A stretch of DNA of 61,682 nt from a bacterium. GTDB lineage: Bacteria; JAJVIF01; JAPKYR01. The stretch spans positions 1 through 61,682 of the forward strand of contig JAPKYR010000193.1 of assembly GCA_026394215.1 (NCBI GenBank), read 5' to 3'. The position numbers and the translations under genes were made by a program. Below the pieces are notes generated by a model. The model saw only the letters and a program-made list of their open reading frames with translations, was not told the origin of the DNA and ran no database searches. Each line of letters begins with the position of its first letter. Within the stretch, counting starts at the first letter, position 1. This document shows, one piece after another, positions 3,445-28,771 of the stretch.

Positions 3445-3515
3445 GATCCGGCTTTTATTTTCTACGTTCCGGGTGCATGCGCCCCTGTAAATTATAGTGC
3501 TATAATCTTTTTGAA

Positions 3516-3746
3516 ATGTTCTTATTGGGACTCGGACTTCTCGGCTCGATTTTCCTCTCCTTCGGATGCCTTATCGCGGCAATAAACTCGCTTCTGTCGC
3601 TCACGCGGGAATCCTTTAATTCAGAAGCGCGGATCATGGCTGTCGCCGGATTCATTGGCGGACTCGTCGCAAGCGCGTTTTTCGGATGGGCGACAATTGT
3701 CCTTGTGAATAAATTAAGCGAAATGAACGTGATACTGGCTCGGTAG
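3516..3746 (+). CDS. small two-TM membrane protein, hypothetical
   Basis: 76-aa ORF with two clear hydrophobic helices (LLGLGLLGSIFLSFGCLIAAI and VAGFIGGLVASAFFGWATIVLV). The competing antisense ORF 3500..3778 has no such features. Confidence 0.35.
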   Translation: MFLLGLGLLGSIFLSFGCLIAAINSLLSLTRESFNSEARIMAVAGFIGGLVASAFFGWATIVLVNKLSEMNVILAR

Positions 3747-3750
3747 ATCA

Positions 3751-8735: not shown

Positions 8736-8944
8736 GGTTGAATTCTACAGGAACCGCACGATATCATCAATTAAAATCTCTTTATCGGGTTTAAATTTAT
8801 TGAACCGGTAAAATTTATCGAAGTATATGGAAATTTCAACCTTTACCACTGCCGTACAAATGCTAAATAGGCTATAATTATGGTAATTTGGTGGCCGGTT
8901 CTGGTCTTGTACCGGCCCCATATGCTGTATTGTCTGAGGTTGCC

Positions 8945-11242: not shown

Positions 11243-11270
11243 TTAAATTAAACAGATTTCAGATTCAATA

Positions 11271-11304
11271 CCGGGCTGCAAAATGGTAGCCCGGGGTTTT
11301 TTTT
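11271..11304 (+). terminator. Rho-independent terminator
   Basis: CCGGGCT-(10 nt loop)-AGCCCGG followed by GGTTTTTTTT, immediately after the stop of the 8945..11242 gene. Confidence 0.75.
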
Positions 11305-11324
11305 GTTATTTATGATTCACTCAC

Positions 11325-11443
11325 GTATCAGAACCACGAACGTCAGTGAGTGGTCTGCCAACGTCAATATACCCGGTAATACATTGTCAATGAGCATAAA
11401 GTGAACATTGTAGACCACTCACTCACGTTCGCGGTTCTGATAC
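11325..11443. repeat. 32-bp inverted repeat pair with a 55-nt spacer
   Basis: GTATCAGAACCACGAACGTCAGTGAGTGGTCT (11325-11356) matches the reverse complement of 11412-11443 at 30 of 32 positions. It lies in the leader of the MFS gene. Confidence 0.7.
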
Positions 11444-11527
11444 GCACCATCACTTGAAAAACCCCGGCATAGGTATATAATACCCCCCCGAGAAAAGGCG
11501 CGGTCCAACCCGCGCTGTGTTTATGAA

Positions 11528-12898
11528 ATGGTGAATTCAAGTCCGCTGAGGACTGCTCTTCAATTATCAATCATCGACGGCGCTCTTTTTTCGGTCTACT
11601 GGAGCGTGGTGGCAGGGGCCATCATCAACAGTCTCCTCCTGAGCCTGGGCGCCGAGCCGATGCACCTCGCGATCCTGAATGGCCTTCCATCGCTGGGGGC
11701 GGTGTTCGCGCTTCCCGCCGCAAGGCTCATCCAGAGCCGGGATATCCGCAAACGTTTTGTCCTGGTGACATTCGGGTTGAGCAGGCTTATCTGGCTTTTC
11801 GTTCCGCTCATCGTACTCTTCCCCCCCAATCCATCGCTGCAAATCTGGTTCGTCCTCCTGATTGCCGCGATATGCCACACAACCCATGGAGCGGGGGGAG
11901 TCGGGTGGATAAGCTGGGTGAGCGACCTTGTGCCCGAGGGAATCCGCGGAGTCTATTTCGGCACACGAAACGCCCTGACCAGCCTTATCGGTATGATCGG
12001 GGTAACAATCGCGAGTGTGTGGGCAGACAGGGTTCACTTCCAATTCGGGTACAGCAGAGAGTATCTTGACTGCCTCCTGACACTGATCGGCATCTCAGTA
12101 TTCTTCGCGCTTGCGAGCTGGGCATGCCTCTATCTGCAACCGGTCAGAAAAATGAGGAACCTTGTCACAAACGGCTGGACAGCGATATGGGATAGCCTGG
12201 GCAGTCCGAACGGAAGACGAATAGCGATCTCATGGATGACATTCGCGTTCTCGACCGGCCTCTCCGCCGGCCTTTATACGGTTGCCATGCTGGACAGGTT
12301 TAAGATCACGCTCACCGGGATGACATCGTACGGGTGGATCGCGCTGGTGTTGACCACCCTGACTACTCCTATATGGGGACGGATCGCGGACCGTTTCGGA
12401 AATAAAATCGTATTGCGCATGGCATGGGCCGGCGTATTCTGGCAGCCGCTCCTTTTCGTGTTCACCCCCTACGACATGCCGCACGTTCTGGGACTGCTTC
12501 CGATCACGATCATCGTCGATGCGATCGCGGGCGGGATTTTCTGGCCTGCTGTCGGACTCGCGCAGACCAATCTCGTCATAGCTGAAGCGCCAAGCCAGAC
12601 CCGCGCCGGGCTGTTCGCGTCGCTGGGCGCTCTGACCGGGCTGATAGCGTTCATATCGGTGACTCTCGGAGGCGTGATCACAAAGACCATCGGAACGCAC
12701 ACGTTCAACCTTGGCATTGTGACTCTCGACGACATCAGGACAGTCATGGTAGCAGGCATGATACTTCGACTGCTCTCCGGGATTCTGCTCTTCAGGGTTC
12801 AGGAGCCTCCGAGAAAGAGGGCTCCGATATCGACGTCGCAGGCATTCGCTACGATGGTGAGGTTGTTAACCGGAAGGAAATATAGGTCGATCGCATAA
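11528..12898 (+). CDS. MFS transporter
   Basis: 456 aa with about 12 predicted hydrophobic helices in two halves. Typical MFS loop with Arg/Lys between TM2 and TM3 (SRDIRKRF). Confidence 0.75.
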   Translation: MVNSSPLRTALQLSIIDGALFSVYWSVVAGAIINSLLLSLGAEPMHLAILNGLPSLGAVFALPAARLIQSRDIRKRFVLVTFGLSRLIWLFVPLIVLFPPNPSLQIWFVLLIAAICHTTHGAGGVGWISWVSDLVPEGIRGVYFGTRNALTSLIGMIGVTIASVWADRVHFQFGYSREYLDCLLTLIGISVFFALASWACLYLQPVRKMRNLVTNGWTAIWDSLGSPNGRRIAISWMTFAFSTGLSAGLYTVAMLDRFKITLTGMTSYGWIALVLTTLTTPIWGRIADRFGNKIVLRMAWAGVFWQPLLFVFTPYDMPHVLGLLPITIIVDAIAGGIFWPAVGLAQTNLVIAEAPSQTRAGLFASLGALTGLIAFISVTLGGVITKTIGTHTFNLGIVTLDDIRTVMVAGMILRLLSGILLFRVQEPPRKRAPISTSQAFATMVRLLTGRKYRSIA

Positions 12899-12933: not shown

Positions 12934-14703
12934 GTGTTCTATCATAACATGAATATCGCGATGTGCTCCCGGAAACCTGATCAAATACCGAAACGTGATC
13001 CTGACCGAAATTCAAGCGGAGTATTCTATTCTATTTCTTTGCGGATACTTACAATTGCCTCACAGGAGCATTCGGTTGATGATTTCCTGCAGGAAGTTAC
13101 CAGACTACTTCTGGATTTCACCAACTGCGATCTTATTGGAATTTATTCAACTACTGGGATCATCGATGGTAGCGGTGTGGAAATAGGAGCTCCAAAGTTT
13201 ATTTACTCGTATTTCGAAACAAAACGAGGAAGGAAGGAAACAATAAGCTCAAGAAGGCATGCCACGAAGGTCAAGCAATCTCTGGAGAGCATTATTACCG
13301 GGAAATTTGAATCATCCCAGGATTCCGTCTCGGGGAGAGGAAGTTTCTGGGTAAACGATATTCAGAGCGGCACCGTTGAAACGGACATCGCGAATTTCAC
13401 GCTTGTGGACGTGCAGAAAAAAAGTGCCGAAGAATTCAGGTCCATCGCACTTATACCGGTCCAAGTCTCGATGGAAAGGGTTGGAATTCTTCAGTTGACA
13501 AGCAAGCAGGCATCCTTCTTCTCGCCTTCCGACATAGAATTCTATGAGGAAATATGCGATATACTCGGAAAAGGCCTGATGACATGCCGCGCACAGAACG
13601 ACCTTCGCGAGCGCGTAAAGGAAATAACATGCTTGTACAATATCGCCCAGATTGCCGCAGAACCGGGTTTATCACTGGATGATATTCTTGTAAAAATTGT
13701 CAAATTGCTGCCGCGTGCCTGGCAGTATCCTGAGATCGCCGAATGCAGAATCATCCTGGATGGGCAGGAGTTTACTACCGATGGATTCATTGAAAGCCTT
13801 CAGCAACAGACTGCAGACTTAATTATCAATGGCGGCAGATGCGGTACGGTTGAAGTCGTCTACACGGAGAAAATGGCTGAACTTTACGAAGGGCCATTTC
13901 TGAAAGAGGAGCGAAACCTTATCGATACGGTTGCCAACCTGATTGTGCAGGTCATTGAGAGAAAACAGGCTGAAGATGAAAAAAGCAGGCTTCAGGATCA
14001 GCTCAGGCATGCGGACAGGCTTGCCACCATCGGACAACTCGCGGCTGGCGTCGCGCATGAGTTCAATGAACCCCTGGGGAACATCCTCGGTTTCGCCCAG
14101 TTGATACTTAAGGACAAAAATGTTCCCGAACAAATCCGCCAGGATATCAATAAGATAATTACCGCTTCTATGCATGCCCGGGAAGTTATTAAGAAGCTCA
14201 TGTTGTTCGCTCGTCAGGCGCCATCCAGGAAATTAAAGGTTAGCCTGAATAAAGTAATTGATGACGGTCTGTATTTTCTTGAGGCCCGTTGCTTAAAAGC
14301 CGGTATTGAGCTGAACCGTGAGCTTGATCCCGACCTGCCCGATATAACGGTGGACCAGTCCCAGATGCATCAGATCATTGTGAACCTTGTGGTTAACGCG
14401 GTCCAGGCGATGCCGGGTGGGGGAACCATCACTATCTCCACTTCAAGACTTGGTAAGGAGATCAGCCTTAAGGTTGCCGACACGGGGATCGGGATGGATG
14501 AGGAAGTCAAAAAGAAATTATTCATCCCATTTTTCACGACAAAAGATATTGACGAGGGAACGGGATTAGGCCTTCCTGTCGTTCATGGTATTGTGACTTC
14601 GCATGGAGGAAAAATATCTGTCGAAAGCCAGGTTGGAAAAGGCAGCACCTTTGAAATTATATTACCAGTGGATAATCCTTCAATAAGTGAGGTTTCCGAA
14701 TGA
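12934..14703 (+). CDS. sensor histidine kinase with GAF-type sensory region (cytoplasmic)
   Basis: HisKA H-box RLATIGQLAAGVAHEFNEPL, and HATPase N/G boxes (NLVVNAVQAM, DTGIGM, GTGLGL). No TM helices. GTG start at 12934, with an alternative ATG at 12949. Its stop overlaps the next start (ATGA). Confidence 0.85.
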   Translation: MFYHNMNIAMCSRKPDQIPKRDPDRNSSGVFYSISLRILTIASQEHSVDDFLQEVTRLLLDFTNCDLIGIYSTTGIIDGSGVEIGAPKFIYSYFETKRGRKETISSRRHATKVKQSLESIITGKFESSQDSVSGRGSFWVNDIQSGTVETDIANFTLVDVQKKSAEEFRSIALIPVQVSMERVGILQLTSKQASFFSPSDIEFYEEICDILGKGLMTCRAQNDLRERVKEITCLYNIAQIAAEPGLSLDDILVKIVKLLPRAWQYPEIAECRIILDGQEFTTDGFIESLQQQTADLIINGGRCGTVEVVYTEKMAELYEGPFLKEERNLIDTVANLIVQVIERKQAEDEKSRLQDQLRHADRLATIGQLAAGVAHEFNEPLGNILGFAQLILKDKNVPEQIRQDINKIITASMHAREVIKKLMLFARQAPSRKLKVSLNKVIDDGLYFLEARCLKAGIELNRELDPDLPDITVDQSQMHQIIVNLVVNAVQAMPGGGTITISTSRLGKEISLKVADTGIGMDEEVKKKLFIPFFTTKDIDEGTGLGLPVVHGIVTSHGGKISVESQVGKGSTFEIILPVDNPSISEVSE

Positions 14704-16061
14704 TGCCGGTGCGGTCCAGCAATGAAAGCATCCTTGTTGTCGATGATTCCGATGCAACCCTTGAAGTAATCCAGAGGAATCTATCCGCAGAGGGTTACAA
14801 GGTATACACTGCCGGGAATGTCGGGGATGCAATCGCGATACTGGAGCAAACCGTCCTGGACCTTGTAATCACCGACCTGAAAATGCCCAAGGTCAGCGGA
14901 CTGGACCTTATCAGGCACATGAGGGAAAATTATCCCGATTGCGAAGTTATGATGATAACGGGGTATGCAACAGTGGAGGGAGCGGTTGAGGCGGTTAAAG
15001 CCGGAGCGGAGGAATATCTTTCCAAGCCATTCACCGACGACGAATTGCTGAAGGCTGTCCGAACAGCGTTGGAAAAATTGTACATGCGCAGGATGACAAG
15101 GGATTCAAGCATACCGGCTTTGTTTGAATCGTACAGCATAATGGGGAAGTCGGCCTGTATGCTGAATATAATGAATGCCATAGGGAAAGCTACGTCCACC
15201 AATGCCACCGTGCTTATCTACGGTGAAAGCGGCACCGGTAAGGAGCTTGTCGCCAGGGCTATTCATTACAACAGCTCAAGGGCTTCTTCCGCTTTTGTGC
15301 CTGTGAACTGTGGAGGCATACCTGAAAGCCTCCTTGAGAGCGAGCTTTTCGGGCACTTAAAGGGATCGTTCACAAGCGCCAACGAAACACGCGCTGGTTT
15401 TTTCCAGACTGCCGATGGGGGGACAATCTTCCTTGACGAAGTTGGCGAGATGAGCCTTACTATGCAGGTCAAGCTGCTCAGGGTGCTTCAGGACAAGGAA
15501 TTCTGCATGGTGGGCTCCACTAAATCTTCGAAGGTGGATGTCAGGATTCTCGCTGCCACAAACAAGGACCTGCTTAAGCTTGTCGAAAAGGGGAATTTCA
15601 GGGAAGACCTGTATTATAGGTTAAATGTCATCAATATCGTTATCCCTCCCTTGAGAGAACGCGGCGATGATATTCTGCTTCTGACTAATCATTTTATCGA
15701 GGAATATTCAAGGAAAGCCGGAAAGGACCCGATATCCTTAAGCGATAATGCCCTTCGTGTTCTCATTAATTATTCATGGCCGGGGAATGTGCGCGAGCTT
15801 GAAAATCTGATACAGCGTCTTGTGGTAATGACGGACAGCGATTCGATTGACGTGAATGACCTGCCATCCTTAATGAGGTTCTCGGTCAGCAGGAATGCCA
15901 ACCTTAATAAGAGCCTTGCCGAAATGGAAGCCGAGCATATCCACAACGTTCTGATGAGTGTTGACGGTAACAAATCACAGGCGTCCAGGATCCTCGGAAT
16001 CGACCGAAAGACCCTGCGAGAGAAAATGAAACTATACGGGTTTGCAGAGAATAAATCCTGA
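14700..16061 (+). CDS. sigma54-dependent response regulator (NtrC family)
   Basis: REC domain (ILVVDDSDA...DLVITDLKMP), Walker A GESGTGKELV, GAFTGA-loop variant GSFTSA (15363-15380), WPGNVRELEN, and a C-terminal HTH (NKSQASRILGIDRKTLREKM). Confidence 0.9.
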   Translation: MMPVRSSNESILVVDDSDATLEVIQRNLSAEGYKVYTAGNVGDAIAILEQTVLDLVITDLKMPKVSGLDLIRHMRENYPDCEVMMITGYATVEGAVEAVKAGAEEYLSKPFTDDELLKAVRTALEKLYMRRMTRDSSIPALFESYSIMGKSACMLNIMNAIGKATSTNATVLIYGESGTGKELVARAIHYNSSRASSAFVPVNCGGIPESLLESELFGHLKGSFTSANETRAGFFQTADGGTIFLDEVGEMSLTMQVKLLRVLQDKEFCMVGSTKSSKVDVRILAATNKDLLKLVEKGNFREDLYYRLNVINIVIPPLRERGDDILLLTNHFIEEYSRKAGKDPISLSDNALRVLINYSWPGNVRELENLIQRLVVMTDSDSIDVNDLPSLMRFSVSRNANLNKSLAEMEAEHIHNVLMSVDGNKSQASRILGIDRKTLREKMKLYGFAENKS

Positions 16062-16066
16062 TTGCT

Positions 16067-16088
16067 GAGGAATTCCTCTCCACCGGTG
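16067..16088 (+). promoter_or_regulatory. candidate activator binding sites (palindromes GAGGAATTCCTC and CACCGGTG)
   Basis: Two perfect palindromes lie about 125-145 bp upstream of the -24/-12 promoter, at the distance expected for bacterial enhancer-binding sites. Confidence 0.3.
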
Positions 16089-16212
16089 CAAATATCCTCA
16101 CTTCTACACTTTGATCTTCACAGCCGGTCCCTTTACAGATTATACAAAACGATGCGGTTCATGGTTTATTGACTGGTCTGGAACCCTCATCAGCAGTGCT
16201 GTTAAGGGATAT

Positions 16213-16228
16213 TGGCCGATTAATTGCA
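16213..16228 (+). promoter_or_regulatory. sigma54 (-24/-12) promoter
   Basis: TGGCCGATTAATTGCA has exact GG-N10-GC spacing with TGGC and TTGCA blocks. It sits directly downstream of a sigma54 activator gene and upstream of the NuoE/NuoF-GltD operon. Confidence 0.6.
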
Positions 16229-16397
16229 TCATTACGATAATAAAAAAATGAGAAAAGGTCTGTTGGCACGGTATGTGAATGATATCAGGCGGCAACAGCA
16301 TTTCCGCTTTCCCGGCTATTTAATTTCATCTTGTTCGGGAGTGGAGAGCGGGACTGAAGGAAAATCTTACCATCGCTCCAGGAATAAGGAGAAATAT

Positions 16398-16838
16398 ATG
16401 CCTAAATCGTCCACGAGAGCCAAGAACGCTGTAAAAAAACTGGATAAGCCTGCAATAAAGGAAGGCTTCAGCGCGAACCGAAAAATTATTCAATCCAACG
16501 GCAAAAAAGCCAGGCAGACTTCTTCTGGTTCAGCGATTGAGTACAACGACCTTTGCACCACATGCAACAATCCCCCTGTCTGCGATAGCACAAGAGCTGG
16601 TCGCAGGCCGGTTTATTTTTGCGAGCAGTTCGATGACTATAAAAAACCGGGTGAAGCCCAACGACCCGGTTCGCCTGCAAAGAAATCGAAAGTAATTTCC
16701 GAGCCGGAACCGCCAATGGAACAGATCCAGGCTGCAGGTGAGAAGTATACCGGTATCTGCAAAAACTGCGACCTTCGTGAAACGTGCATGAATGCATGCG
16801 CCGAAGGCGGGATATGGCACTGTGAAGAATATTGCTGA
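16398..16838 (+). CDS. small Cys-rich protein with two CxxC-containing repeats, putative metal/FeS binding, hypothetical
   Basis: ATG at 16398 with RBS AAGGAGA; the ORF-track start at 16224 would overlap the promoter. Repeats CTTCNNPPVCDSTRAGRRPVYFCEQF and CKNCDLRETCMNACAEGGIWHCEEY are separated by a basic/Pro-rich linker. Confidence 0.6.
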   Translation: MPKSSTRAKNAVKKLDKPAIKEGFSANRKIIQSNGKKARQTSSGSAIEYNDLCTTCNNPPVCDSTRAGRRPVYFCEQFDDYKKPGEAQRPGSPAKKSKVISEPEPPMEQIQAAGEKYTGICKNCDLRETCMNACAEGGIWHCEEYC

Positions 16839-16883
16839 TTTGGTCCGTGTAATTTGTGCCGCACAGCGACAGGAATATTTGTC

Positions 16884-17720
16884 ATGAATATCGAAATTGT
16901 CGAGAAAATCCTCGAGAAACACAGAAAACAGGGCGACGGTCTTATATCCATACTCGAAGAGATCCAATCGAGGTTCACCTACCTTCCTGAAGAAGCATTG
17001 AGAATGGTAGCTTCAGAAAGGAATATACCCCTGGTTAATGTCTACGGGGTGGCGACCTTTTACAGGGCATTCAGCCTGAAGCCCAGGGGGAAACATCTGA
17101 TATGCGGCTGCCTGGGAACCGCTTGCCATGTTCGGGGAGGCCCGGTAATCGTTGAGGAATTAGAGAAAAACCTTGGCGTCAAACGTGGTGAGACTACCCC
17201 TGATAAGGAATTCACATTGGAGACAGTGGCATGTCTCGGCGCCTGCGCACTTGGCCCTGTAGTCGTAGCCGACGGAAAGTACTTTCCAAAGGTGCGGAAG
17301 ACCAAAGTAAAGAACATATTAGAGCAGGTTCGCAAGGGATTCGAGGATTCGAGCGTCGAACAGGACTACCACATATTTCCTGTCGAGGTCAGCTGCCCGA
17401 ATTGCAATCACAGCCTCATGAATCCCAATCATATAATCGATCATTACCCTTCAATTCGGTTTATCGCTTCGTTCGATCAAAAACACGGTTGGATCGAATT
17501 GTCTTCAATGTACGGAAGCTACAAGGTTTTTACCGAGCATGAAATTCCATCGGACACAATCGTCCATTTCTTCTGTACCCATTGCCATGCCGAACTGACA
17601 GGCTCATCGCCGTGTCCGGCATGTAACGCCCCGATGGCCTCGATGATCGTACGCGGGGGAGGGATCATTCAGATATGTTCCCGACAGGGATGCAGAAGCC
17701 ACATGCTTGATTTAGGTTAA
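16884..17720 (+). CDS. NuoE/HydC-type thioredoxin-like [2Fe-2S] protein with a ~110-aa C-terminal Cys-rich (zinc-ribbon-like) extension
   Basis: NuoE core (ISILEEIQSRFTYLPEEA..., CGCLGTACHVRGG, TVACLGACALGPVV). The extension carries CPNC...CTHC...CPAC...CSRQGC. The likely start is the ATG at 16884 (MNIEIVEKIL). Confidence 0.8.
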   Translation: MNIEIVEKILEKHRKQGDGLISILEEIQSRFTYLPEEALRMVASERNIPLVNVYGVATFYRAFSLKPRGKHLICGCLGTACHVRGGPVIVEELEKNLGVKRGETTPDKEFTLETVACLGACALGPVVVADGKYFPKVRKTKVKNILEQVRKGFEDSSVEQDYHIFPVEVSCPNCNHSLMNPNHIIDHYPSIRFIASFDQKHGWIELSSMYGSYKVFTEHEIPSDTIVHFFCTHCHAELTGSSPCPACNAPMASMIVRGGGIIQICSRQGCRSHMLDLG

Positions 17721-17773
17721 CTGGAGTTTGAAACCAGGGTGCAAAGTTTTGAAATGCAGCTTGGAGGATTTTA

Positions 17774-20700
17774 ATGTTGAAATTATTTTCAATTGACGAT
17801 CTCAGGAATTTACGCGAAATTATCACCAGCGATATTGATATAAAAAAACCCTGCATAAATATCTGCGGTGAAACAGCTTGTCTTGCCAGCGAGGCGAATC
17901 TGATTGTCCGGGCTGCCAAAGGGCATATCCTCGGAAAGCGTTTGCACGATAAGATTTCACTGCGCATTACAGGTTGCCATGGATTCTGCGAGATGGGTCC
18001 AACCATCGTTACCGAACCGCAGAACGCATTTTACGTTAAGGTCAAGTCTGAAGATGTTCCACGGATTATCGATGCGACATTGAAGAATAAATATGTTGAT
18101 GAACTGCTGTACACAGACCCAAAATCCGGAACGAAATATTATTCGCAGAATGAAATCCCATTCTTCAAGAATCAGAAACGAACGGTATTCAGTAGAAACC
18201 AGAAAATTGATCCAATAAGAATTTATGATTATATCGCCAGCGGAGGCTACCTGGCTATCGAGAAAGTCCTCAGTGGCATGACAAGGGAACAGGTCGTCAA
18301 CGAAATAAAGAATTCAGGTCTACGAGGTCGCGGCGGAGCCGGTTTCCCGACCGGATTGAAATGGGAAATGCTGGCAAAACAGCCATCCGATGAGGGTAAA
18401 TACATAGTTTGTAACGCTGATGAGGGGGATCCCGGTGCCTATATGGACAGGAGCCTTCTTGAGGGCAACCCGCATGGAGTCATCGAGGGTATGTTAATAG
18501 GCGCATTCGCCACCGGCGCCACAAAAGCGATTGTTTATGTCCGAAATGAATACCCTATGGCGATCAAGCATCTGATTATCGCTTTAAGCCAGGCTCGGGA
18601 TCTTGGGCTCATTGGAGAAAATATTCTCGGAACCGATTTCAGCCTTGATTTTGAAGTTGTAAAGGGCGCGGGCGCGTTTGTATGCGGCGAGGAAACCGCC
18701 CTGATGAGGTCAGTCGAGGGAAAAGTGGGAGAACCGCGTCAGCGTCCTCCCTTCCCGGTTGAAAAGGGAATCTACGGCAAACCCACAGCGATTAATAACG
18801 TGGAAACATGGGCCAACATTCCCATTATTATTGAGAAAGGGGCGTCGGAGTACGCAAAGATCGGTACTAAGGGAAATTCGGGAACAAAGATTTTCAGCCT
18901 TGTGGGAAAAATCAAAAATACCGGGCTTGTCGAAGTCCCGATGGGCATTACAATCAAAAAGATTGTATATGACATCGGCGGCGGATCCATTGGGAATGCC
19001 AGGATAAAAGCAGTTCAAACTGGTGGGCCATCGGGAGGATGCATCCCGGCTGATAAGTTCGATCTACATATCGATTATGACAGTCTGGCTCAGGCGGGTT
19101 CGATCATGGGCTCAGGCGGCATGATCGTAATGGACGAAAAGACATGCATGGTCGATGTCGCCAAATATTTCATGAATTTCCTCAAGAGCGAATCCTGCGG
19201 GAAGTGTTTCACCTGTCGTAAGGGTACGCAGCGGATGTATGAGCTGCTGGATGAGATCACCAGGGGGCAGGGAACCATGGAGAAACTGGATCTCCTTGAG
19301 GAACTCGCCCTGGCCGTTAAAGATACGACAATGTGCGGGCTGGGACAGACAGCATCCAATCCAGTCTTATCAACACTTAAATATTTCCACGACGAATATG
19401 TACAGCATATTATTTACAAGAGATGTCCGGCGGGTGTCTGCACGGAACTTGTCGGGGCACCATGCCAGAACGCATGTCCGGTCGGAACAGAGGCATGGCG
19501 CTATGTCGCTCTGATTGAAAAGGGTGAATACGAGGAAGCCTATAAAGTCATCAGGGCTCCAAACCCATTCCCATCGGTATGCGCCAGAGTCTGCGATCAT
19601 AAGTGCGAAGCGAATTGCCGCCTTGGCACAACCGGCGGGCAACCGATCGCGGTAAGGGCTTTGAAGCGTTTTATCACCGATACGGTCGATCCATCCGTTT
19701 ACAATTCGGAAAAATTCATTCCCGCCGGCGAAGATTCGCGAAGGATTGCGGTTATCGGAGCGGGGCCTTCAGGGCTTACCGCAGCATATTACCTCTCTCT
19801 CGACGGATACAGGGTGTCTGTATTTGAATCCGAGGACAGGCCTGGCGGTATGCTTGCCTGCGGCATCCCGGAATACCGGCTTCCCAGAAATATTCTTGAG
19901 AAGGAAATAGACGCCCTTCTTAACGAAAATATCAAACTTGAATGCAATAAAGCCCTCGGCCGTGATTTCACGGTTGACGGTCTCTTTAAGGACGGATTCG
20001 ACGCGGTGTTCCTGTCGATGGGTGCCCATAAATCAAGGACGCTTGAATTCGGAGCAGATAGCGCACCCCATGTTTTCTCATCGATCAATTTCCTGAAAGC
20101 ATATAATCTAAGAGGCGAATTCCTTGCAAAGGGCAGGGTTGGTGTTATTGGAGGAGGCAATTCGGCGGTCGATGCGGCCAGAGCCGCCTTCCGCCAGCCG
20201 GACGTCCAGAATGTCGTCATCCTTTATCGCAGAACGATAAATGAGATGCCTGCGTATGAGGAAGAGATAAAAGCCGCTCTCGAAGAGGGCGTTGAGATCA
20301 GGGAACTTGTCACTCCGGGATCGATCTTCACACAAAACGGTAAACTTACCGGGATCGAGTGTTTCCAGAATGTCCTTGGCGATATCGACGCAAGCGGCAG
20401 ACGTCAGCCAGTTTTGAATAAAAGCAAGAAGACCCTCGTTTCTTTTGACACTCTGATTGTCGGCATTGGCGAGCATCCTGACACCGGATTCCTTAAAGAA
20501 ATGGAAATTGCGATCGATTCCGATGGCAAACCGATTATCGATCCCGATACCCTTGCCACATCCAGGGAAGGCGTGTTCGCGGGAGGCGACCTGGTCACAG
20601 GTTCCAGCACCGTTATCGGAGCTATCGCGATGGGGAAAAAGGCGGCGTTGGTAATTGGCCGGTATCTCAGAAATGAGGAACTCTGGCAGACGCCCGAAAT

Positions 20701-20944
20701 CAGGCTTCCTGATTTCTTCCTGGAACCATCCCCGGAAAGCGATGTAGAGACGGATATGGAATTACCGAGGATTGAGATACCGGAAATCCCGGTGGAATCT
20801 CGCGCCGATAATTTCAGCGAAGTTGAAAGGACGATTTCACGGGAAGCTGCCAAAGTGGAGTGCGGAAGATGTTTGCGCTGCGATCTGGCATTTACGCAGA
20901 AGCGGGAAGACGAAATAGCTGCTGTTGGTGATAAAGCGAAATGA
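17774..20944 (+). CDS. fusion protein: NuoF/HydB-type NADH-FMN-FeS subunit + GltD/NfnB-type FAD/NAD(P)H oxidoreductase
   Basis: N-terminal Trx-like 2Fe-2S domain (ITGCHGFCEMGP). NuoF core (GLRGRGGAGFPTGLKW, CNADEGDPGAYMDR, ESCGKCFTCRKG). GltD-type FeS region (CQNACPVGTEAWRY, CARVCDHKCEANCR) and Rossmann folds (RIAVIGAGPSGLTAAYYL, VGVIGGGNSAVDAA). RBS GGAGGA. 1056 aa. Confidence 0.85.
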   Translation: MLKLFSIDDLRNLREIITSDIDIKKPCINICGETACLASEANLIVRAAKGHILGKRLHDKISLRITGCHGFCEMGPTIVTEPQNAFYVKVKSEDVPRIIDATLKNKYVDELLYTDPKSGTKYYSQNEIPFFKNQKRTVFSRNQKIDPIRIYDYIASGGYLAIEKVLSGMTREQVVNEIKNSGLRGRGGAGFPTGLKWEMLAKQPSDEGKYIVCNADEGDPGAYMDRSLLEGNPHGVIEGMLIGAFATGATKAIVYVRNEYPMAIKHLIIALSQARDLGLIGENILGTDFSLDFEVVKGAGAFVCGEETALMRSVEGKVGEPRQRPPFPVEKGIYGKPTAINNVETWANIPIIIEKGASEYAKIGTKGNSGTKIFSLVGKIKNTGLVEVPMGITIKKIVYDIGGGSIGNARIKAVQTGGPSGGCIPADKFDLHIDYDSLAQAGSIMGSGGMIVMDEKTCMVDVAKYFMNFLKSESCGKCFTCRKGTQRMYELLDEITRGQGTMEKLDLLEELALAVKDTTMCGLGQTASNPVLSTLKYFHDEYVQHIIYKRCPAGVCTELVGAPCQNACPVGTEAWRYVALIEKGEYEEAYKVIRAPNPFPSVCARVCDHKCEANCRLGTTGGQPIAVRALKRFITDTVDPSVYNSEKFIPAGEDSRRIAVIGAGPSGLTAAYYLSLDGYRVSVFESEDRPGGMLACGIPEYRLPRNILEKEIDALLNENIKLECNKALGRDFTVDGLFKDGFDAVFLSMGAHKSRTLEFGADSAPHVFSSINFLKAYNLRGEFLAKGRVGVIGGGNSAVDAARAAFRQPDVQNVVILYRRTINEMPAYEEEIKAALEEGVEIRELVTPGSIFTQNGKLTGIECFQNVLGDIDASGRRQPVLNKSKKTLVSFDTLIVGIGEHPDTGFLKEMEIAIDSDGKPIIDPDTLATSREGVFAGGDLVTGSSTVIGAIAMGKKAALVIGRYLRNEELWQTPEIRLPDFFLEPSPESDVETDMELPRIEIPEIPVESRADNFSEVERTISREAAKVECGRCLRCDLAFTQKREDEIAAVGDKAK

Positions 20945-21618
20945 TTAACCTGATAATAAACGGCCTTGATGTCCACGTACCTGAAGGCTCGACTGTTCTT
21001 GAAGCCGCCAGATTTCTTGGATTTCCTATCCCCACGCTTTGCTATCTGGAGAGTCTGTCGCCATACGGCGCATGCAGGCTTTGTGTGGTGGAAATTGGAG
21101 AAGGCGCCAGGGCCAAACTCGTATCGTCCTGCACCTATCCTGCGACTGAGGGCCTTAAAGTCAGGACCTCGTCAGAGAGGGTAGTAAAAGCGAGACGAAT
21201 GGTAATAGAGCTGCTTCTTGCCACATGTCCGCAATCGAAGACCATTCAGGATCTTGCATCGGCTCATAATGTCCGCCGGCAAAGGTTCAGGCAGGAGCAC
21301 GAGGACTGCATCTTGTGCGGCCTTTGCACCCGAATGTGCGAGGAACAGATGATGGCAAAGGCAATAGGATTCAGAGGACGCGGCGAAAGTCGAAGCATCG
21401 GGACGCCGTTCGATATCGAATCCGAAGTGTGCCGTCGCTGCGGCGGATGCATGTATGTCTGCCCGGCATGCCAGTTAAGGTGCACCTTTACTAACCCCGA
21501 AAAGGCGATTTGCGGAGGGTGCGCGAATCTCGCGCCCCCCTGCGTTGAGAAAGACCAGTTTAAAGACCTTATGTGCTACATGGATCCCTGTGTGGCATGC
21601 GAAATAAAAAAGGATTGA
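20941..21618 (+). CDS. 2Fe-2S + 4Fe-4S ferredoxin-like protein (NuoG/HydA N-terminal-type)
   Basis: MINLIINGLDVHVPEGSTVLEAAR...CRLCVVEI is the plant-type 2Fe-2S N-domain of NuoG/HydA. It is followed by CILCGLCTRMC and CRRCGGCMYVCP cluster motifs. The start overlaps the upstream stop (ATGA). Confidence 0.75.
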   Translation: MINLIINGLDVHVPEGSTVLEAARFLGFPIPTLCYLESLSPYGACRLCVVEIGEGARAKLVSSCTYPATEGLKVRTSSERVVKARRMVIELLLATCPQSKTIQDLASAHNVRRQRFRQEHEDCILCGLCTRMCEEQMMAKAIGFRGRGESRSIGTPFDIESEVCRRCGGCMYVCPACQLRCTFTNPEKAICGGCANLAPPCVEKDQFKDLMCYMDPCVACEIKKD

Positions 21619-21638
21619 CAAGAATCAAGGAGATAAAG

Positions 21639-23249
21639 ATGTCGTATTCTAGAGTTAATTCCTCTGCCGCTACCCTGACTAAAAATCGTACCGAAGAATC
21701 CATTACCCCGTCGTCAGGGATGTGCGTAACCTGCGTTGACGGGTGTATAGGGATGTGTGAAATCGGTAAGTCCGCGTATCGCGGGCATGAGGTAATTTAC
21801 CCGCAGCCATTCGGGGTCATAACGACCGCAGCGGAAAAAACCTACCCTGTCGACTATTCGCATTTCAATATTATGGGCACTGCGGTTGGCGCCCATGGTA
21901 TTGAAGCCGATAGTGACAAAGCCATATTCCCGGCGGTGAACCTCGAAGTTGCCTTTGGCCACGACAAGGATATCAAATTCCGCATGCCGTTCATGATCCC
22001 GGGGATTGGCTCCACAAATATCGCCAAGAACAACTGGGAAGGTTTAGCCATCGGTACTGCACTTGCAGGAACCGGACTTACCATCGGCGAGAACGTCGTC
22101 GGGATGGACCCCCAGACGGTCATGAAAAACGGCCATGTTATAGATACTGTAGACATGAAACGCAGGGTTAAGCTGTTTATGGATCACCAGCGCGATGGTT
22201 ATGGGGCTATCATTGTCCAGGCTAACGTTGAAGATACCCGCCTGGGTGCTCAGGAATACGCAATTCAACAACTTGGTGTCAAGTGCGTCGAGCTTAAATG
22301 GGGTCAGGGCGCGAAGGACATCGGGGGCGAAGTTAAAATCGCCGACCTGAAGAAAGCGCAGCTTCTCCATGAGCGAGGCTATATCGTCCTCCCGAATCCC
22401 ACCGATCCTTACGTTATCCAGGCTTTTGAAAAGGGAGCTTTTACCGAGTTCGAACGCCATTCCAGAGTCGGCATGGTCACAGAGGAATCATTCGCTAAAA
22501 GAGTCGAGGAACTTCGAGCCGCCGGTGCTAAATACGTTTTCCTTAAGACTGGCGCTTATCGCCCCGCAGACCTTGCCCGGGCTATCAAGTTTGCCTCCAA
22601 ATATAAATTAGACCTTCTGACCGTTGACGCAGCGGGCGGCGGCACTGGCATGAGCCCCTGGCGCATGATGAATGAATGGGGTATCCCACCGGTCGAAATA
22701 CATTCGCTTTTGTATCAATACGCCAAACGTCTTCACGATGCCGGTGAATATCTTCCCGCGATCGCTGTCGCAGGCGGATTCACATTTGAGGACCTGATTT
22801 TCAAAGGGCTTGCCATGGGCGCTCCATTTGTCAAGCTTGTCGGTATGGCGCGCGGTCCTATCGCCGCTGCGATGGTCGGTAAAACCATCGGAAAAACCAT
22901 CGATGAGCATCAGGTTCCCGTGTATGTCGAGCGTTTCGGCACCACGAAGGACAAGATATTCGTCACCGCTGCGCACCTTCGAAAGGAGCTTGGCGATGCA
23001 GAATTTGAAAAACTCCCGACCGGCGCTATCGGTCTCTATACATATTATGAACGGTTGGCACAGGGCCTTCGCCAGATGATGGCCGGTAGCAGAAGATTTG
23101 CCTTAGAATATATGTCGCGGGATGATCTGGCTGCACTCACTCCACAGGCTGCCCAGATCAGCGGTATCAGGTATATCATGGATGTCGATAAGGAAGAAGT
23201 GGATAAAATACTTAATGTTGCAGCTGCACCCGTTAAAGCCAGACACTGA
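21639..23249 (+). CDS. FMN-binding glutamate synthase family protein (GltB central-domain-like, no amidotransferase domain)
   Basis: ATG at 21639 with RBS AAGGAGA. The TIM-barrel FMN signature DAAGGGTGMSPW plus IAVAGGF are as in the GltB FMN domain. N-terminal Cys cluster CVTCVDGCIGMC. Confidence 0.8.
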   Translation: MSYSRVNSSAATLTKNRTEESITPSSGMCVTCVDGCIGMCEIGKSAYRGHEVIYPQPFGVITTAAEKTYPVDYSHFNIMGTAVGAHGIEADSDKAIFPAVNLEVAFGHDKDIKFRMPFMIPGIGSTNIAKNNWEGLAIGTALAGTGLTIGENVVGMDPQTVMKNGHVIDTVDMKRRVKLFMDHQRDGYGAIIVQANVEDTRLGAQEYAIQQLGVKCVELKWGQGAKDIGGEVKIADLKKAQLLHERGYIVLPNPTDPYVIQAFEKGAFTEFERHSRVGMVTEESFAKRVEELRAAGAKYVFLKTGAYRPADLARAIKFASKYKLDLLTVDAAGGGTGMSPWRMMNEWGIPPVEIHSLLYQYAKRLHDAGEYLPAIAVAGGFTFEDLIFKGLAMGAPFVKLVGMARGPIAAAMVGKTIGKTIDEHQVPVYVERFGTTKDKIFVTAAHLRKELGDAEFEKLPTGAIGLYTYYERLAQGLRQMMAGSRRFALEYMSRDDLAALTPQAAQISGIRYIMDVDKEEVDKILNVAAAPVKARH

Positions 23250-23268
23250 CATGCTACTTTCTCTATAG

Positions 23269-23309
23269 GGCTGGGAAAATAATTGCATTTCCCCAGCCTT
23301 TCTTTTTTT
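23269..23309 (+). terminator. Rho-independent terminator
   Basis: GGCTGGG-loop-CCCAGCC followed by TTTCTTTTTTT, 20 nt after the operon's last stop codon. Confidence 0.75.
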
Positions 23310-23340: not shown

Positions 23341-23431
23341 CCGTGGCATGCGACTCCGGCGCATGGATTCACGTATCATGCGACTCCGGCGAATGAGATG
23401 GGAATTCATGCACCGGAGTCGCATGCCACGG
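23341..23431. repeat. complex palindrome with an internal direct repeat (possible alternative hairpins)
   Basis: CCGTGGCATGCGACTCCGGCGCATG (23341-23365) pairs with CATGCACCGGAGTCGCATGCCACGG (23407-23431). A second copy of CATGCGACTCCGGCGAATG lies at 23377-23395. Confidence 0.6.
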
Positions 23432-23530: not shown

Positions 23531-24367
23531 ATGAAAATTTTAATCACAAACGATGATGGAGTCCGCGCGCCGGGAATTATCGCGCTCGCCAGTGCGTTGA
23601 AGGAAATCGCAGATGTGATCCTTGTCGCGCCGGAATCGCAGCAGTCTGCTGTCGGGCATTCGATCACGCTTCATAAACCCCTTCGATGTGTGGAGCTTGA
23701 CAATTTCCCGATCGACGGGATCAAAGCGTTCAGCACGAACGGAACCCCGACCGATTCTATCCTCCTTGGAATTCACGCCGTTATCGGCGAAAAACCAGAC
23801 CTGGTGATTTCCGGAATTAACGGCGGCCCGAACCTTGGCGCCGATGTCACGTACTCCGGAACTGTCGCGGGGGCTCTTGAAGGCGTGGTCGCAGGGATTC
23901 CGTCCATTTCCTGCAGCATGGGCGGATTCGAAAATCTGGACTATAAAGGCTGCGCGGAATTCGTAAAAATCCTCGCACGGATAGTACATGAGGAATCTCT
24001 CCCCGACGGAATTCTCCTGAATATAAACTACCCGAACATACCGGAGGAAGAAATCAAGGGGATTAAAATCACAAGGCTCGGGCAGCGATGGTACGACGAT
24101 GTTGTCCATGAGAGGGTCGATCCGAGGGGGCGGAAATATTACTGGATCACAGGCAAGAAAGTGCTGTACGGCAGGCAGGAAGGGACGGATTCGCATGAAA
24201 TTGAAAATGGTTTCATATCGATTACTCCCCTTGGTCTCGATATTACCAGCATCGAATATCTGGTGAATGTCGCGGATATGTTATCCTGCTACACTGGCGT
24301 AAAAAGCGCAAATAAGAGCGGCTTGAAAATACCGTACGAGGTTTTTGGACCAACGGCATGTAAATGA
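23531..24367 (+). CDS. surE: 5'/3'-nucleotidase SurE
   Basis: MKILITNDDGVRAPGI...VAPESQQSAVGHSIT...SGINGGPNLG are canonical SurE motifs. Confidence 0.9.
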   Translation: MKILITNDDGVRAPGIIALASALKEIADVILVAPESQQSAVGHSITLHKPLRCVELDNFPIDGIKAFSTNGTPTDSILLGIHAVIGEKPDLVISGINGGPNLGADVTYSGTVAGALEGVVAGIPSISCSMGGFENLDYKGCAEFVKILARIVHEESLPDGILLNINYPNIPEEEIKGIKITRLGQRWYDDVVHERVDPRGRKYYWITGKKVLYGRQEGTDSHEIENGFISITPLGLDITSIEYLVNVADMLSCYTGVKSANKSGLKIPYEVFGPTACK

Positions 24368-27346: not shown

Positions 27347-28771
27347 ATGAACAACGAGATCAGAGCGAAGTATAACGAAGTTTATCTGTTACCTCCAGCA
27401 GTAGAGGAGTGGGTACCCGCAGACCATCCCGCGAGATTCATACGGCAGATTGTAGAGAGCCTGGACCTTGATGAAATGGGCTTCAAATGCCGGAAATCGG
27501 AAGTCGGGAATCCAAGTTTCTCGGCGGATCTAATGCTGAAAGCATGGCTGTACGGGTTAATGAAGGGGATTAAGAGCAGCCGGAAGATGGAGGCGGCCTG
27601 CCTTGATTCAATAGCATTGGTGTGGCTGACGGGCAACAAAGCGCCGGATCATAATACGTTCTGGCGCTTTTACCAGGACAACAAGGGCACATTCAAAACT
27701 CTGTTCAGGAAGACGGCCAGGATTGCAGTTGACAGCGGGCTGGTCGGAATGGTTCTGCACGCGGTGGACGGCACGAAAATACAGGCGCTGCCGTCGCCGG
27801 TGAGGGGACAGAGACGCGATAAACTTACGAAACTTTTAAAAGAGCTGGATGAATCGATCGACAAAATGTTTGAGGAGATGGAATCGAACGAGGCGCAGGA
27901 ATCAGGCGAGATGCGGCTTCCCGAGGAACTGCGCGATGCCGCCGTTCTGAAGCAGAGGATTGAAGAGGCGTTGCACGAGATGGACGAGGCCGGTGTGAAC
28001 CACCTTCATCCCGACGATCCCGATGCGAGAATGATAAAGCTGAAGGGGAGAGACGAATTTTGCTACAACGCGCAGGCTGTTGTCGACTCGGAAAGCGGCA
28101 TAATTGTCGCGGAGGATGTTGTGAGCGAGTGCAACGACAACGGTCTTATGAATCGCATGCTTGACGAAGTGGAGGAGAATCTGGGAGATTTGGCGATGGA
28201 ATCGGTGGCGGACGCGGGTTACTTTTCGGCGCGTGATCTTGAAGAGGCCGAGAAACGCGATCGAAATGTGCTGGTGAATATGGAGAATCTGCGCAGCGGG
28301 GACGGGGAAGGCGAGTTTCGCGCGGCAAAATTCAACTTCGATGAAGAGCGCGATTGTGTGGTCTGCCCGCTCGGACAGGACCTTCCGTTTGTCGGGACTT
28401 CGCCTGGCAACAAGGGAAGCAGGGAAGACAGATACCGGGTTTACCGCTGCAAAAAGCGCGACTGTCCCTCCCGATTGCAATGCACAAAAAACAAGCAGGG
28501 CCGTTCAATAAAAATCGGTAAACATCACGCGGCGATGGTGCGTCAAAGAGAAAAACAACGCGATTCTGAAATGCGGCGTCTTCTCGCGGCACGTAAAACT
28601 ATAGTCGAGCCGGTCTTTGGAATAATCAAAGAAGTGTTTGGCTTGAGACGATGGAGCGTGATTGGGATCGAAAAGGTCAGAGCGGTATGGTCGCTCATCT
28701 GCACCGCGTTCAATCTGAAGAAGATGTACAGGTTCTGGATCAGAGGAAAACTCAACCTCTCCGCTGGTTGA
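27347..28771 (+). CDS. IS1182-family (IS5-like DDE) transposase
   Basis: The N-terminus LLPPAVEEWVPADHPARFI and the C-terminus VEPVFGIIKEVFGLRRWSVIGIEKVRAVWSLICTAFNLKK are the hallmark IS1182/IS5 blocks. I could not define the element ends. Confidence 0.85.
   Translation: MNNEIRAKYNEVYLLPPAVEEWVPADHPARFIRQIVESLDLDEMGFKCRKSEVGNPSFSADLMLKAWLYGLMKGIKSSRKMEAACLDSIALVWLTGNKAPDHNTFWRFYQDNKGTFKTLFRKTARIAVDSGLVGMVLHAVDGTKIQALPSPVRGQRRDKLTKLLKELDESIDKMFEEMESNEAQESGEMRLPEELRDAAVLKQRIEEALHEMDEAGVNHLHPDDPDARMIKLKGRDEFCYNAQAVVDSESGIIVAEDVVSECNDNGLMNRMLDEVEENLGDLAMESVADAGYFSARDLEEAEKRDRNVLVNMENLRSGDGEGEFRAAKFNFDEERDCVVCPLGQDLPFVGTSPGNKGSREDRYRVYRCKKRDCPSRLQCTKNKQGRSIKIGKHHAAMVRQREKQRDSEMRRLLAARKTIVEPVFGIIKEVFGLRRWSVIGIEKVRAVWSLICTAFNLKKMYRFWIRGKLNLSAG

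Follow-up and report, generated by a model that had tools for sequence, protein, structure and literature searches.

A sigma-54-controlled operon for a putative Bfu-type complex with an FMN-barrel subunit and a possible link to the glutamate couple

The stretch of DNA considered here (hereafter the window, at its full length of 61,682 nucleotides) is positions 1 to 61,682 of contig JAPKYR010000193.1, from a bacterial metagenome-assembled genome (MAG; GenBank assembly GCA_026394215.1). Between positions 12934 and 23249, it carries two regulatory genes followed by a five-gene operon. Three of the operon products, BfuC, BfuB and BfuA, are assigned by their sequences as parts of a BfuABC (HydABC-type) iron-sulfur flavoenzyme, while the last one is a triose-phosphate isomerase (TIM) barrel protein predicted to hold a [4Fe-4S] cluster and flavin mononucleotide (FMN). 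Very probably, these proteins belong to a Bfu-type complex in which the FMN barrel is the third module. The glutamate couple is a serious candidate for its substrate, albeit one that falls just short of being probable, and the proposal as a whole, i.e., a Bfu-type complex that couples a glutamate half-reaction to NAD(H) and, in addition, to either NADP(H) or ferredoxin, is put forward as tentative.

The Bfu-type subunits and their FMN partner

An earlier note on this DNA, made from its letters alone, had proposed a HydABC/Bfu-type input module, which agrees with the nearest PDB relatives of the subunits (BfuB, NfnL and a minimal BfuA). In BfuC, the ligands of cluster C1 (C76, C81, C117 and C121) are 98–100% conserved among 49 orthologues, and the C-terminal tail holds eight invariant cysteines in a double zinc ribbon. 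For the NuoF part of BfuB, the closest PDB sequences are BfuB subunits: 7t2r_B (NiFe-HydABCSL, E 2e-206), 7q4v_B, 9mqx_B (WorB) and 9n5u_B (NfnB); these closest solved relatives, FeFe-HydB among them, all come from proven electron-bifurcating enzymes. The ligands of cluster B1 (C475, C478, C481 and C521) and of the B2 site (H545, C551 and C556) are invariant. Moreover, a partial PF01257 match (residues 25–101) marks an N-terminal thioredoxin-like domain, in which conservation reaches 92% at C68 and C72 and stays below the 85% threshold at the other two B5 ligands; B5 may be either a cluster or a zinc site. Both this domain (B5) and the His/Cys B2 site, which are missing from non-bifurcating homologues, are kept in the BfuB of the window.

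BfuA combines three sets of four invariant cysteines, for one [2Fe-2S] and two [4Fe-4S] clusters, with eight further invariant cysteines in its C-terminal tail, and a comparison of conserved ligands detected no motif for a His-ligated cluster in its orthologues. Its closest PDB match (9mqx_A, E 2e-36) is WorA, the 247-aa subunit of the tungsten aldehyde oxidoreductase–Bfu complex. Judging from its ligands, this pattern fits the Type 2 BfuA subunits, which are devoid of the His-ligated cluster and pass electrons to an additional catalytic subunit (PMC9304861). WorA docks WorS through its own C-terminus (PMC12318220) and, by analogy, the 8-Cys tail of BfuA is presumed to dock onto the FMN subunit and to wire the two together.

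BfuB exists in two forms. The long form, a BfuB::GltD fusion of 1056–1063 aa, was found in 50 of 65 loci (50 independent assemblies), whereas the remaining 15 loci (about a fifth) have a canonical 616-aa BfuB without the GltD module; carriers of this short form include Ca. Scalindua rubra, Zixibacteria, Phycisphaerales, Verrucomicrobiota, Riflebacteria and Terriglobia. Both forms are collinear up to the RCPAGVC motif, after which the long one runs on as the Fer4_20 domain of GltD, while the short one's C-terminal domain shows the two CxxCxxCxxxC motifs of clusters B3/B4, a ferredoxin-like domain that is absent from the window fusion and from the 50 long-form loci among the 65. The GltD part of the fusion (residues 555–1040) matches Fer4_20 (E 1e-22), Pyr_redox_2 (E 1e-24) and NF009410 (E 1e-127), and its closest solved relatives over residues 562–1037 are the NfnL-like module of Csac NfnA (9bov_A, E 7e-96), StnC (8oh5_C) and Tsi NfnA (9n5u_A).

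In Bfu enzymes, electrons travel from the third substrate through BfuA and B1-FMN-C1 to B3/B4 and ferredoxin, with B3/B4 at the end of the low-potential branch (PMC11829005), and ferredoxin binds between the ferredoxin-like domain of BfuB and the C-terminal domain of BfuC (PMC12018979). Because GltD takes the position of B3/B4, the ferredoxin-reducing domain has been swapped in the window for a flavin adenine dinucleotide (FAD)/NAD(P)H module that includes two [4Fe-4S] clusters. Identity values for the FMN, BfuA and BfuC subunits do not differ whether short forms are compared among themselves, long forms among themselves or short with long forms, which makes both sets indistinguishable by identity and suggests that either output domain serves the same catalytic core; the system appears to be defined by its FMN subunit, the constant third module, and not by the GltD module. 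The second NAD(P)H/FAD site of the earlier note is present as a GltD module, but it is optional and, standing where the ferredoxin domain is expected, it is not a simple second input.

Close relatives of the FMN protein number in the thousands in sequence databases, and a scan of contigs with one genome per species recovered it from at least 572 species genomes, among them the closed MAG chromosomes CP070766.1, CP070813.1, CP070756.1, CP070677.1 and CP070718.1. The best 80 loci, all from MAGs, were described and belong to more than 12 phyla, among which are Planctomycetota/Phycisphaerae, Zixibacteria, Acidobacteriota, Ignavibacteria, Bacteroidota, Latescibacterota, Verrucomicrobiota, Syntrophales, Syntrophorhabdus, Ca. 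Scalindua rubra (anammox), Spirochaetales, Fibrobacterota, Myxococcales, Marinimicrobia and the Krumholzi-, Eisen-, Coates- and Riflebacteria. Wherever enough upstream DNA was available, tblastn with the seven window proteins returned the order NuoE, NuoF, ferredoxin, FMN protein, so that the synteny on which the earlier note had made its reading depend holds across more than 12 phyla. Among 73 species (the loci closest to the query, likewise from more than 12 phyla), the mean pairwise identity of the FMN protein is 0.80 (minimum 0.73), with 275 of 527 columns at least 95% identical, compared to 0.79 for BfuA, 0.63 for BfuB and 0.58 for BfuC. The FMN subunit and BfuA are the most conserved, and an identity of about 80% across phyla argues for a strongly constrained, and probably important, activity of the FMN protein.

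Two rival explanations deny that the FMN protein and the Bfu-type subunits form such a system. According to the first one, the fusion or the juxtaposition of the genes would result from mis-assembly or chance in a MAG, a suspicion that the nature of the contig and a transposase 4 kb downstream might raise. Its probability is negligible: base composition is even across the operon region, and the same order was observed in all loci with enough flanking DNA, including closed MAG chromosomes. As for an assembly chimera, which the earlier note had wanted checked, it is ruled out by the recurrence of the fusion in 50 independent assemblies, and the fusion is genuine. According to the second one, the operon would encode a rearranged Nfn/Stn transhydrogenase for NADH and NADPH (possibly with ferredoxin), the FMN protein being an accessory or an unrelated neighbour, since the NuoE, NuoF, GltD and BfuA domains amount to the StnABC/NfnABC inventory minus the Fdh-like remnant. 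This is very unlikely, given that the FMN gene is always adjacent (it starts 20 nt past the BfuA gene), is the most conserved of the set and persists in the 15 loci without GltD, while a canonical Stn/NfnABC set already exists at 35957–42179 of the window. The simpler idea that the operon is the organism's own Nfn was rejected on the same two grounds, i.e., the short forms devoid of GltD and the separate canonical set.

The FMN subunit and its candidate substrate

The FMN protein matches the Glu_synthase family (PF01645) at E 5.6e-13 (49 bits for a cut-off of 20.4), but over profile positions 185–303 of 369 only. It matches no NCBIfam model, and a direct sequence search of the PDB returned no real match; when the family profile was used instead, GltB came up at only E 0.15, along with spurious designed TIM barrels. 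Aligned with hhalign to the FMN domain of E. coli GltB, the family profile reaches E 4e-5, with DLLTVDAAGGGTGMSP facing DLITIAGYDGGTGASP, whereas its alignment to E. coli LldD stays at E 0.13, by which membership of the alpha-hydroxyacid dehydrogenase family was ruled out at the sequence level. Visual comparison shows the barrel to be collinear with GltB over its whole length: VELKWGQGAK226-DIGGE231...R246 is matched there by IQIKVAQGAK-PGEGGQ...AKLR, with an arginine at +20 in both, and K226, E231 and R246 are invariant in the FMN clade. These positions would be equivalent to K972, Q978 and R992 of Azospirillum GltS, the putative 2-oxoglutarate binders, the numbering being self-consistent on E. 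coli GltB. The 3Fe-4S motif of GltB, CX5CX4C (CKYLRICHLNNC in E. coli), is aligned with a Cys-free stretch of the FMN protein, and an N-terminal CX2CX3CX3C motif (C29, C32, C36 and C40) is invariant in the latter. On these alignments, we consider the FMN protein to be distantly homologous to the FMN domain of GltB. To call it a glutamate synthase (GOGAT) core, as in the earlier note, overstates the kinship, which is very distant and without a direct PDB match.

When computed from 30 close homologues, the AlphaFold2 model of the FMN protein had a pLDDT of 52, which rose to 86.5 once divergent relatives were added. The resulting model is a confident TIM barrel with a helical C-terminus and about 70 N-terminal residues of low confidence. 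Foldseek matches it at equal distance to lactate monooxygenase/oxidase, glycolate oxidase, flavocytochrome b2, GOGAT (7mfm_G, 1ofd_A) and IDI-2 (E ~1e-9 to 1e-8, TM 0.40–0.47, identity 10–16%), without any single neighbour family. A HMMER scan of 1.8 billion cluster representatives yielded only 1084 matches at E<=1e-3, in which full-length relatives go down to 30–54% identity. With so few representatives and no match to a solved structure or an NCBIfam model, the family is isolated in sequence space, and NCBIfam, the PDB, the HMMER scan and the contexts of relatives all failed to place it in a clade of known function, a possibility that the earlier note had singled out as fatal to its reading.

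Divergent relatives of the FMN protein (L084-L092) are stand-alone genes on contigs of Thermoleophilia and Asgard archaea (Jordarchaeia/Freyarchaeota), without Bfu neighbours, while an 800-aa metagenomic relative (P0269) is fused to two [4Fe-4S] clusters and an FrhB/FdhB F420-binding domain. Since its relatives plug into different electron-input modules, the barrel would act as a portable, self-contained Fe-S/FMN reductase module.

Gene neighbourhoods point to glutamate. All open reading frames of at least 100 aa were clustered over 75 loci, and beyond the operon genes only two neighbour families recur: glutamate dehydrogenase (GDH) and a PPDK_N-domain protein. GDH genes (Pfam ELFV_dehydrog) lie beside or inside the operon in 9 of the 75 loci, from different phyla, where fewer than one would be expected (an estimate based on 1–2 GDH genes in each genome and some 18 genes in a 20-kb locus, not a computed control). 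They occupy the gap between the Cys gene and nuoE within the operon (L048, L057 (= Scalindua)), the position immediately 3' of the FMN gene (L023, L035), the region 5' of the kinase gene (L016, L044, L053) or the interval between regulator and operon (L012). According to NCBIfam, the enzymes of L023 and L053 are of the NADP-GdhA type, and those of L012, L035 and L057 of the archaeal type. L012 carries two copies (2620–3160 and 4560–4780) of the GGGGA-N5-TCCCC site described below, of an identical -24/-12 box, TGGCACACTCATTGCT, and of the Cys gene's 5' half; the partial copy of the Cys gene ends in a premature stop and the GDH gene (3179–4477) lies between both copies, which puts this GDH under the same control elements as the operon. 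The link to nitrogen that the earlier note had suspected from the regulator alone has thereby found independent support. Across the 75 loci, neither amidotransferase nor GXGXG domains recur among the neighbours.

Our proposal for the mechanism is as follows. Four (or five) of the proteins would assemble into one soluble complex, with BfuC and BfuB as the NADH/FMN flavobicluster core, NAD(H) reacting at BfuB, and BfuA relaying electrons between this core and the fourth subunit, the [4Fe-4S]/FMN barrel, where the third substrate would react. Electrons would move in either direction along barrel FMN, barrel [4Fe-4S], BfuA clusters and B1-FMN-C1, and the C1 branch would lead to ferredoxin in the short form or to FAD/NADP(H) in the long form. 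In the barrel, 2-oxoglutarate and NH4+ would be interconverted with glutamate, independently of glutamine, through 2-iminoglutarate at the FMN. The long and short forms would then share two coupled partners, NAD(H) and the glutamate couple, and differ in the third, which would be NADP(H) in the former and ferredoxin in the latter. With NADH as the donor, iminoglutarate would receive one share of the electrons and ferredoxin or NADP+ the other; the reverse reaction would be a ferredoxin- or NADPH-assisted oxidation of glutamate. The autotrophic anammox carrier and the NADP-type GDH neighbours hint at an assimilatory direction, whereas the accessory, regulator-linked distribution among peptide degraders hints at a catabolic one.

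Several observations weigh against this proposal. The standard potential of the glutamate couple is about -0.13 V, well above that of NADH, which would make it a high-potential partner, unlike H2 or formate. The couple thus falls outside the -400 mV range of the well-characterised third substrates of Bfu enzymes (PMC9304861, Table 1). In agreement with the earlier note, Pfam and NCBIfam detected no amidotransferase, GXGXG, H-cluster or molybdopterin domain in the operon proteins; without the first two, glutamate synthesis would need free ammonia, as GDH already uses. The structural model puts alpha-hydroxyacid oxidases, GOGAT and IDI-2 equally far from the FMN protein, the role attributed to K226 and R246 is a putative one, backed by the consistency of the numbering only, and a GDH neighbour exists in only 12% of the loci. 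Finally, the long form is devoid of the ferredoxin-binding domain, and bifurcation may be absent from it.

The same complex could instead process another 2-oxo, 2-hydroxy or imino acid, for instance the 2-oxoglutarate/2-hydroxyglutarate pair, another amino acid/oxo-acid pair or a cyclic imine, with GDH one step away. This alternative, which we regard as rather unlikely, would account for lactate monooxygenase, lactate oxidase, glycolate oxidase and flavocytochrome b2 heading the Foldseek results level with GOGAT, for a PF01645 match limited to one third of the profile and for the isolation of the family, and 2-oxoglutarate, the product of GDH, could itself be the substrate. It fits less well with a family profile that aligns to GltB and not to LldD, with the retention of the QGAK...R motif of GltB and with the genes of the hydroxyglutarate pathway, which show no recurrence near the operon in the 75 loci.

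GltD-type modules deliver NAD(P)H electrons to an FMN TIM barrel in GOGAT and in dihydropyrimidine dehydrogenase. By extension of this usual role, the complex could be a non-bifurcating NAD(P)H reductase, in which both nucleotide sites feed the FMN subunit like a funnel, without energetic coupling. The B3/B4 domain is indeed missing from the window and from most loci, and non-bifurcating HydABC homologues exist (PMC9304861). Nevertheless, C1, B1 and the B2 site are kept, as is BfuB's N-terminal domain, the same FMN, BfuA and BfuC subunits occur in short forms whose ferredoxin branch is complete, and GltD replaces precisely the low-potential output domain instead of being added beside BfuA, as it is in Nfn/Stn; a plain reductase thus appears unlikely. 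Returning to the proposed glutamate-linked complex, energy coupling is a possibility that we hold with some doubt. In its most specific version, where the complex would be the first Bfu-type enzyme with an amino acid/oxo-acid third couple and would split NADH electrons between iminoglutarate and either ferredoxin (short form) or NADP+ (long form), the proposal is more improbable than not by a wide measure.

Operon layout, sigma-54 control and surroundings

The features of the window are gathered in Table 1. Seven co-directional reading frames, two ATGA couplings, a -24/-12 box and a terminator had been listed in the earlier note, and reading or folding the sequence retrieved each of them in place. 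The ATGA overlaps join the kinase and activator genes, on the one hand, and the fusion and BfuA genes, on the other hand, and good Shine-Dalgarno sites can be read directly. The terminator hairpin folds at -17.3 kcal/mol (z = -2.8), as well as none of 200 shuffled sequences; a simple terminator scan did not report this hairpin, which was established by folding and by reading the sequence. Rfam returned only chance-level matches on the operon and its leader. Since the proteins of the system have no hydrophobic segment, the latter is expected to be cytoplasmic.

Table 1. Features of the operon, its control region and its surroundings in the window.
Feature	Position	Strand	Evidence or content
Sensor histidine kinase, cytoplasmic	12934-14703	+	GAF, second GAF-like sensor segment, HisKA, HATPase_c (Pfam, NCBIfam)
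NtrC-family sigma-54 activator	14700-16061	+	Response_reg, Sigma54_activat E 4e-70 (AAA+), HTH_8 (Fis-type HTH)
Presumed activator site (upstream activating sequence, UAS)	16065-16102	.	Dyad GAGGA-N2-TCCTC and extra TCCTC half-site
Sigma-54 -24/-12 promoter TGGCCGATTAATTGCA	16213-16228	+	Read from sequence
146-aa Cys-rich protein, operon gene 1	16398-16838	+	No family match
BfuC (NuoE/HydC-like)	16884-17720	+	2Fe-2S_thioredx PF01257 E 3e-47; weak DZR/Zn_ribbon_6 matches in tail
BfuB::GltD (NuoF::GltD) fusion, 1056 aa	17774-20944	+	Complex1_51K E 2e-45, NADH_4Fe-4S E 4e-32, Fer4_20, Pyr_redox_2
Minimal BfuA, 225 aa, ferredoxin-like	20941-21618	+	Fer2_4, Fer4_7; [2Fe-2S] and 2x[4Fe-4S]
FMN protein, 536 aa, [4Fe-4S]/FMN TIM barrel, catalytic candidate	21639-23249	+	Glu_synthase PF01645, partial
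Intrinsic-terminator-like hairpin and T-run	23267-23309 (hairpin 23267-23300)	+	RNA folding and reading
784-aa InhA-like/MAM-domain protein and major facilitator superfamily (MFS) transporter	8888-12898		CarboxypepD_reg in the former, probably a secreted peptidase
Imperfect hairpin in terminator/surE spacer	23341-23431		42-nt arms, 86% complementary, 7 nt apart
surE	23531-24367		
LonB/LonC-like AAA+ protease	24601-27201		
DDE transposase	27347-28771		
Response-regulator-like gene, 5' of Stn/NfnABC set	34881-35876		
NuoE-like gene, Stn/NfnABC set	~35957-36526	+	
592-aa BfuB, Stn/NfnABC set	36679-38457	+	C-terminal 2x[4Fe-4S]
1241-aa StnC/NfnA-type BfuA, Stn/NfnABC set	38454-42179	+	Fer2_4, Fer4_20, Pyr_redox_2, Fer4_Nqo3, Molybdopterin

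The control region is conserved beyond the window. In about 41 to 45 related loci, the kinase gene lies 5' of the operon; its second sensor segment corresponds to no Pfam family. Orthologues of the activator, with ~64% identity, were found in ~45 loci, and 29 of 43 loci have a TGG[CT]-N8-TGC box in the interval that separates the operon from the regulator gene. Across phyla, the UAS has the consensus GGGGA-N5-TCCCC, followed by a third TCCCC half-site ~17 nt further on, and is always located 10–100 nt past the stop codon of the regulator; it scores above every shuffled control in 29 of 42 related intergenic regions. The window copy, CTGAGGAATTCCTCTCCACCGGTGCAAATATCCTCACT, scores 25 of 38 for a control maximum of 24. 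The two palindromes of the earlier note, neither of which was reported by a repeat finder, fared differently: GAGGAATTCCTC, inside 16065–16102, is part of this conserved site, while CAGCAGTGCTG, which adjoins the -24 box, is not conserved. All features of a sigma-54 regulon are present: a gene for an enhancer-binding protein, a promoter of the GG-N10-GC type and an upstream site. The sigma-54 control put forward in the earlier note gains from the conservation of box and site. As far as sequences tell, regulator, operator, promoter and operon persist across phyla as one cassette. The cytoplasmic GAF kinase and its NtrC-type activator are predicted to act through binding at the conserved upstream dyad, by which the sigma-54 promoter would fire the operon.

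The first gene of the operon encodes a protein with two C-x2-C-x5/6-C...C repeats and the C-terminal end GGIWHCEEYC. No match was found for it in Pfam (even at permissive E-values), NCBIfam or the PDB. An orthologue exists in ~40 loci, with the motif GLCxNCxxRxxCxxPKPEGGVWHCEEY, and one orthologue has a sub-threshold WhiB match (E 0.03). WhiB-like [4Fe-4S] proteins have a C-x2-C-x5-C core that the repeats resemble, except that the fourth cysteine lies on the opposite side (e.g., L020, 4829-5179). From its cysteine pattern, the protein may be an Fe-S or Zn protein, either an Fe-S redox sensor or an extra subunit.

The second recurrent neighbour, the PPDK_N-domain protein (~600–1070 aa, usually with a nucleotidyltransferase domain), is encoded immediately 3' of the FMN gene in ~10 loci, which come from several phyla and include L011 (6602-9802), L051, L058, L064, L080, L082, L083 and L040 (11657-13435). 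In 7 of them, its N-terminal segment is homologous to the second sensor segment of the kinase, and by this homology it may form a second regulatory layer.

Regarding the surroundings, the canonical Stn/NfnABC-like transhydrogenase set of the window begins ~13 kb downstream of the operon. The imperfect hairpin past the terminator is made of two direct copies of CATGCGACTCCGGCG and one inverted copy; its sole Rfam match, MIR821, is at chance level, and it could be a repetitive extragenic palindrome (REP)- or miniature inverted-repeat transposable element (MITE)-like element or a regulatory structure. The InhA-like/MFS pair 5' of the kinase gene fits a peptide-degrading lifestyle and is not conserved beside the operon in other loci. 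In one carrier (L002/L003, 14178-21584, minus strand), the operon adjoins hydE/hydF/hydG and an [FeFe]-hydrogenase gene that has a kinase and a regulator to itself, an adjacency that could be a coincidence or could reflect a shared redox neighbourhood.

Significance and comparison with known systems

In anaerobes, Bfu/HydABC-type enzymes hold a central place in energy conservation; further third substrates continue to be added to those on record, and the mechanism by which these enzymes bifurcate electrons still awaits resolution. What is new here is a third module outside the published catalogue, the BfuB::GltD domain swap and a sigma-54 regulon of its own, in a module that reaches at least 572 species genomes and more than 12, mostly uncultured, phyla. 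With the rest of the complex unchanged, the natural exchange of its ferredoxin-binding domain for one that serves NADP(H)/FAD offers a direct handle on the low-potential branch. Should the glutamate link be true, nitrogen and amino-acid metabolism would be tied to the balance of redox carriers in sediments, digesters and anammox systems, through a new coupling of ammonium assimilation or glutamate catabolism to the NADH, NADPH and ferredoxin pools of many uncultured anaerobic phyla, and the "glutamate synthase family protein" annotations of these MAGs would need rereading.

A full-text literature search, with subscription journals mostly outside its coverage, found no description of a Bfu/NuoEF module joined to a GltB-like FMN protein, in line with the view of the earlier note that the system is undescribed. 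The review of the Bfu family lists only H2O2, menaquinone, NADP, F420, H2, formate, pyruvate, CO, aldehydes and benzoyl-CoA for the third reaction (PMC9304861) and does not mention glutamate synthase.

Lactate dehydrogenase–EtfAB and butyryl-CoA dehydrogenase–EtfAB would be mechanistic analogues only, pairing a high-potential organic couple with a low-potential carrier, if NADH is the donor here. They belong to unrelated families (Etf/FAD vs. Bfu/FMN flavobicluster), and no homology is claimed. FGltS likewise joins a glutamate-synthase-type FMN subunit to an alternative electron-input module, but this input is the F420-dependent FrhB/Fsr-N and not Bfu, and the use of glutamine has been proposed for it.

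As in GOGAT (GltBD and ferredoxin-GOGAT), a GltD-type module and a protein collinear with the FMN part of GltB share one operon, and the QGAK...R and GGGTG(M/A)SP motifs are retained. Unlike GOGAT, the system has no class II glutamine amidotransferase domain, GXGXG beta-helix domain or CX5CX4C motif, with CX2CX3CX3C instead; the homology is remote, without a direct PDB match, and GltD is no subunit of its own, the short form even doing without it.

With NfnABC/StnABC (9bov, 8oh5, 9n5u), the system shares a GltD/NfnL-like FAD–NAD(P)H module with two [4Fe-4S] clusters next to a BfuBC core. In these enzymes, however, the module is inside BfuA, on the path of mid-potential input and ahead of a dead Fdh-like domain, whereas here it sits at the C-terminus of BfuB, in the place of the low-potential output, with a BfuA of only 225 aa and a fourth, FMN-containing subunit.

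The closest systems are the Type 2 Bfu enzymes with additional catalytic subunits, such as WorABCSL (9mqx) and NiFe-HydABCSL (7t2r). In common with Type 2 Bfu, we find a BfuC with C1, a BfuB with FMN, B1, the B2 site and the N-terminal thioredoxin-like domain, and a small BfuA, devoid of both the His-ligated cluster and the large C-terminal domain, that would serve a separate catalytic subunit; short-form orthologues also have the full B3/B4 ferredoxin domain. What distinguishes the present system from Bfu is its candidate catalytic subunit, a [4Fe-4S]/FMN TIM barrel outside the listed third modules of the family, the GltD/NfnL module that stands in the window for the ferredoxin-binding domain, the double zinc-ribbon tail of BfuC, the 8-Cys tail of BfuA and a dedicated sigma-54 two-component regulator.

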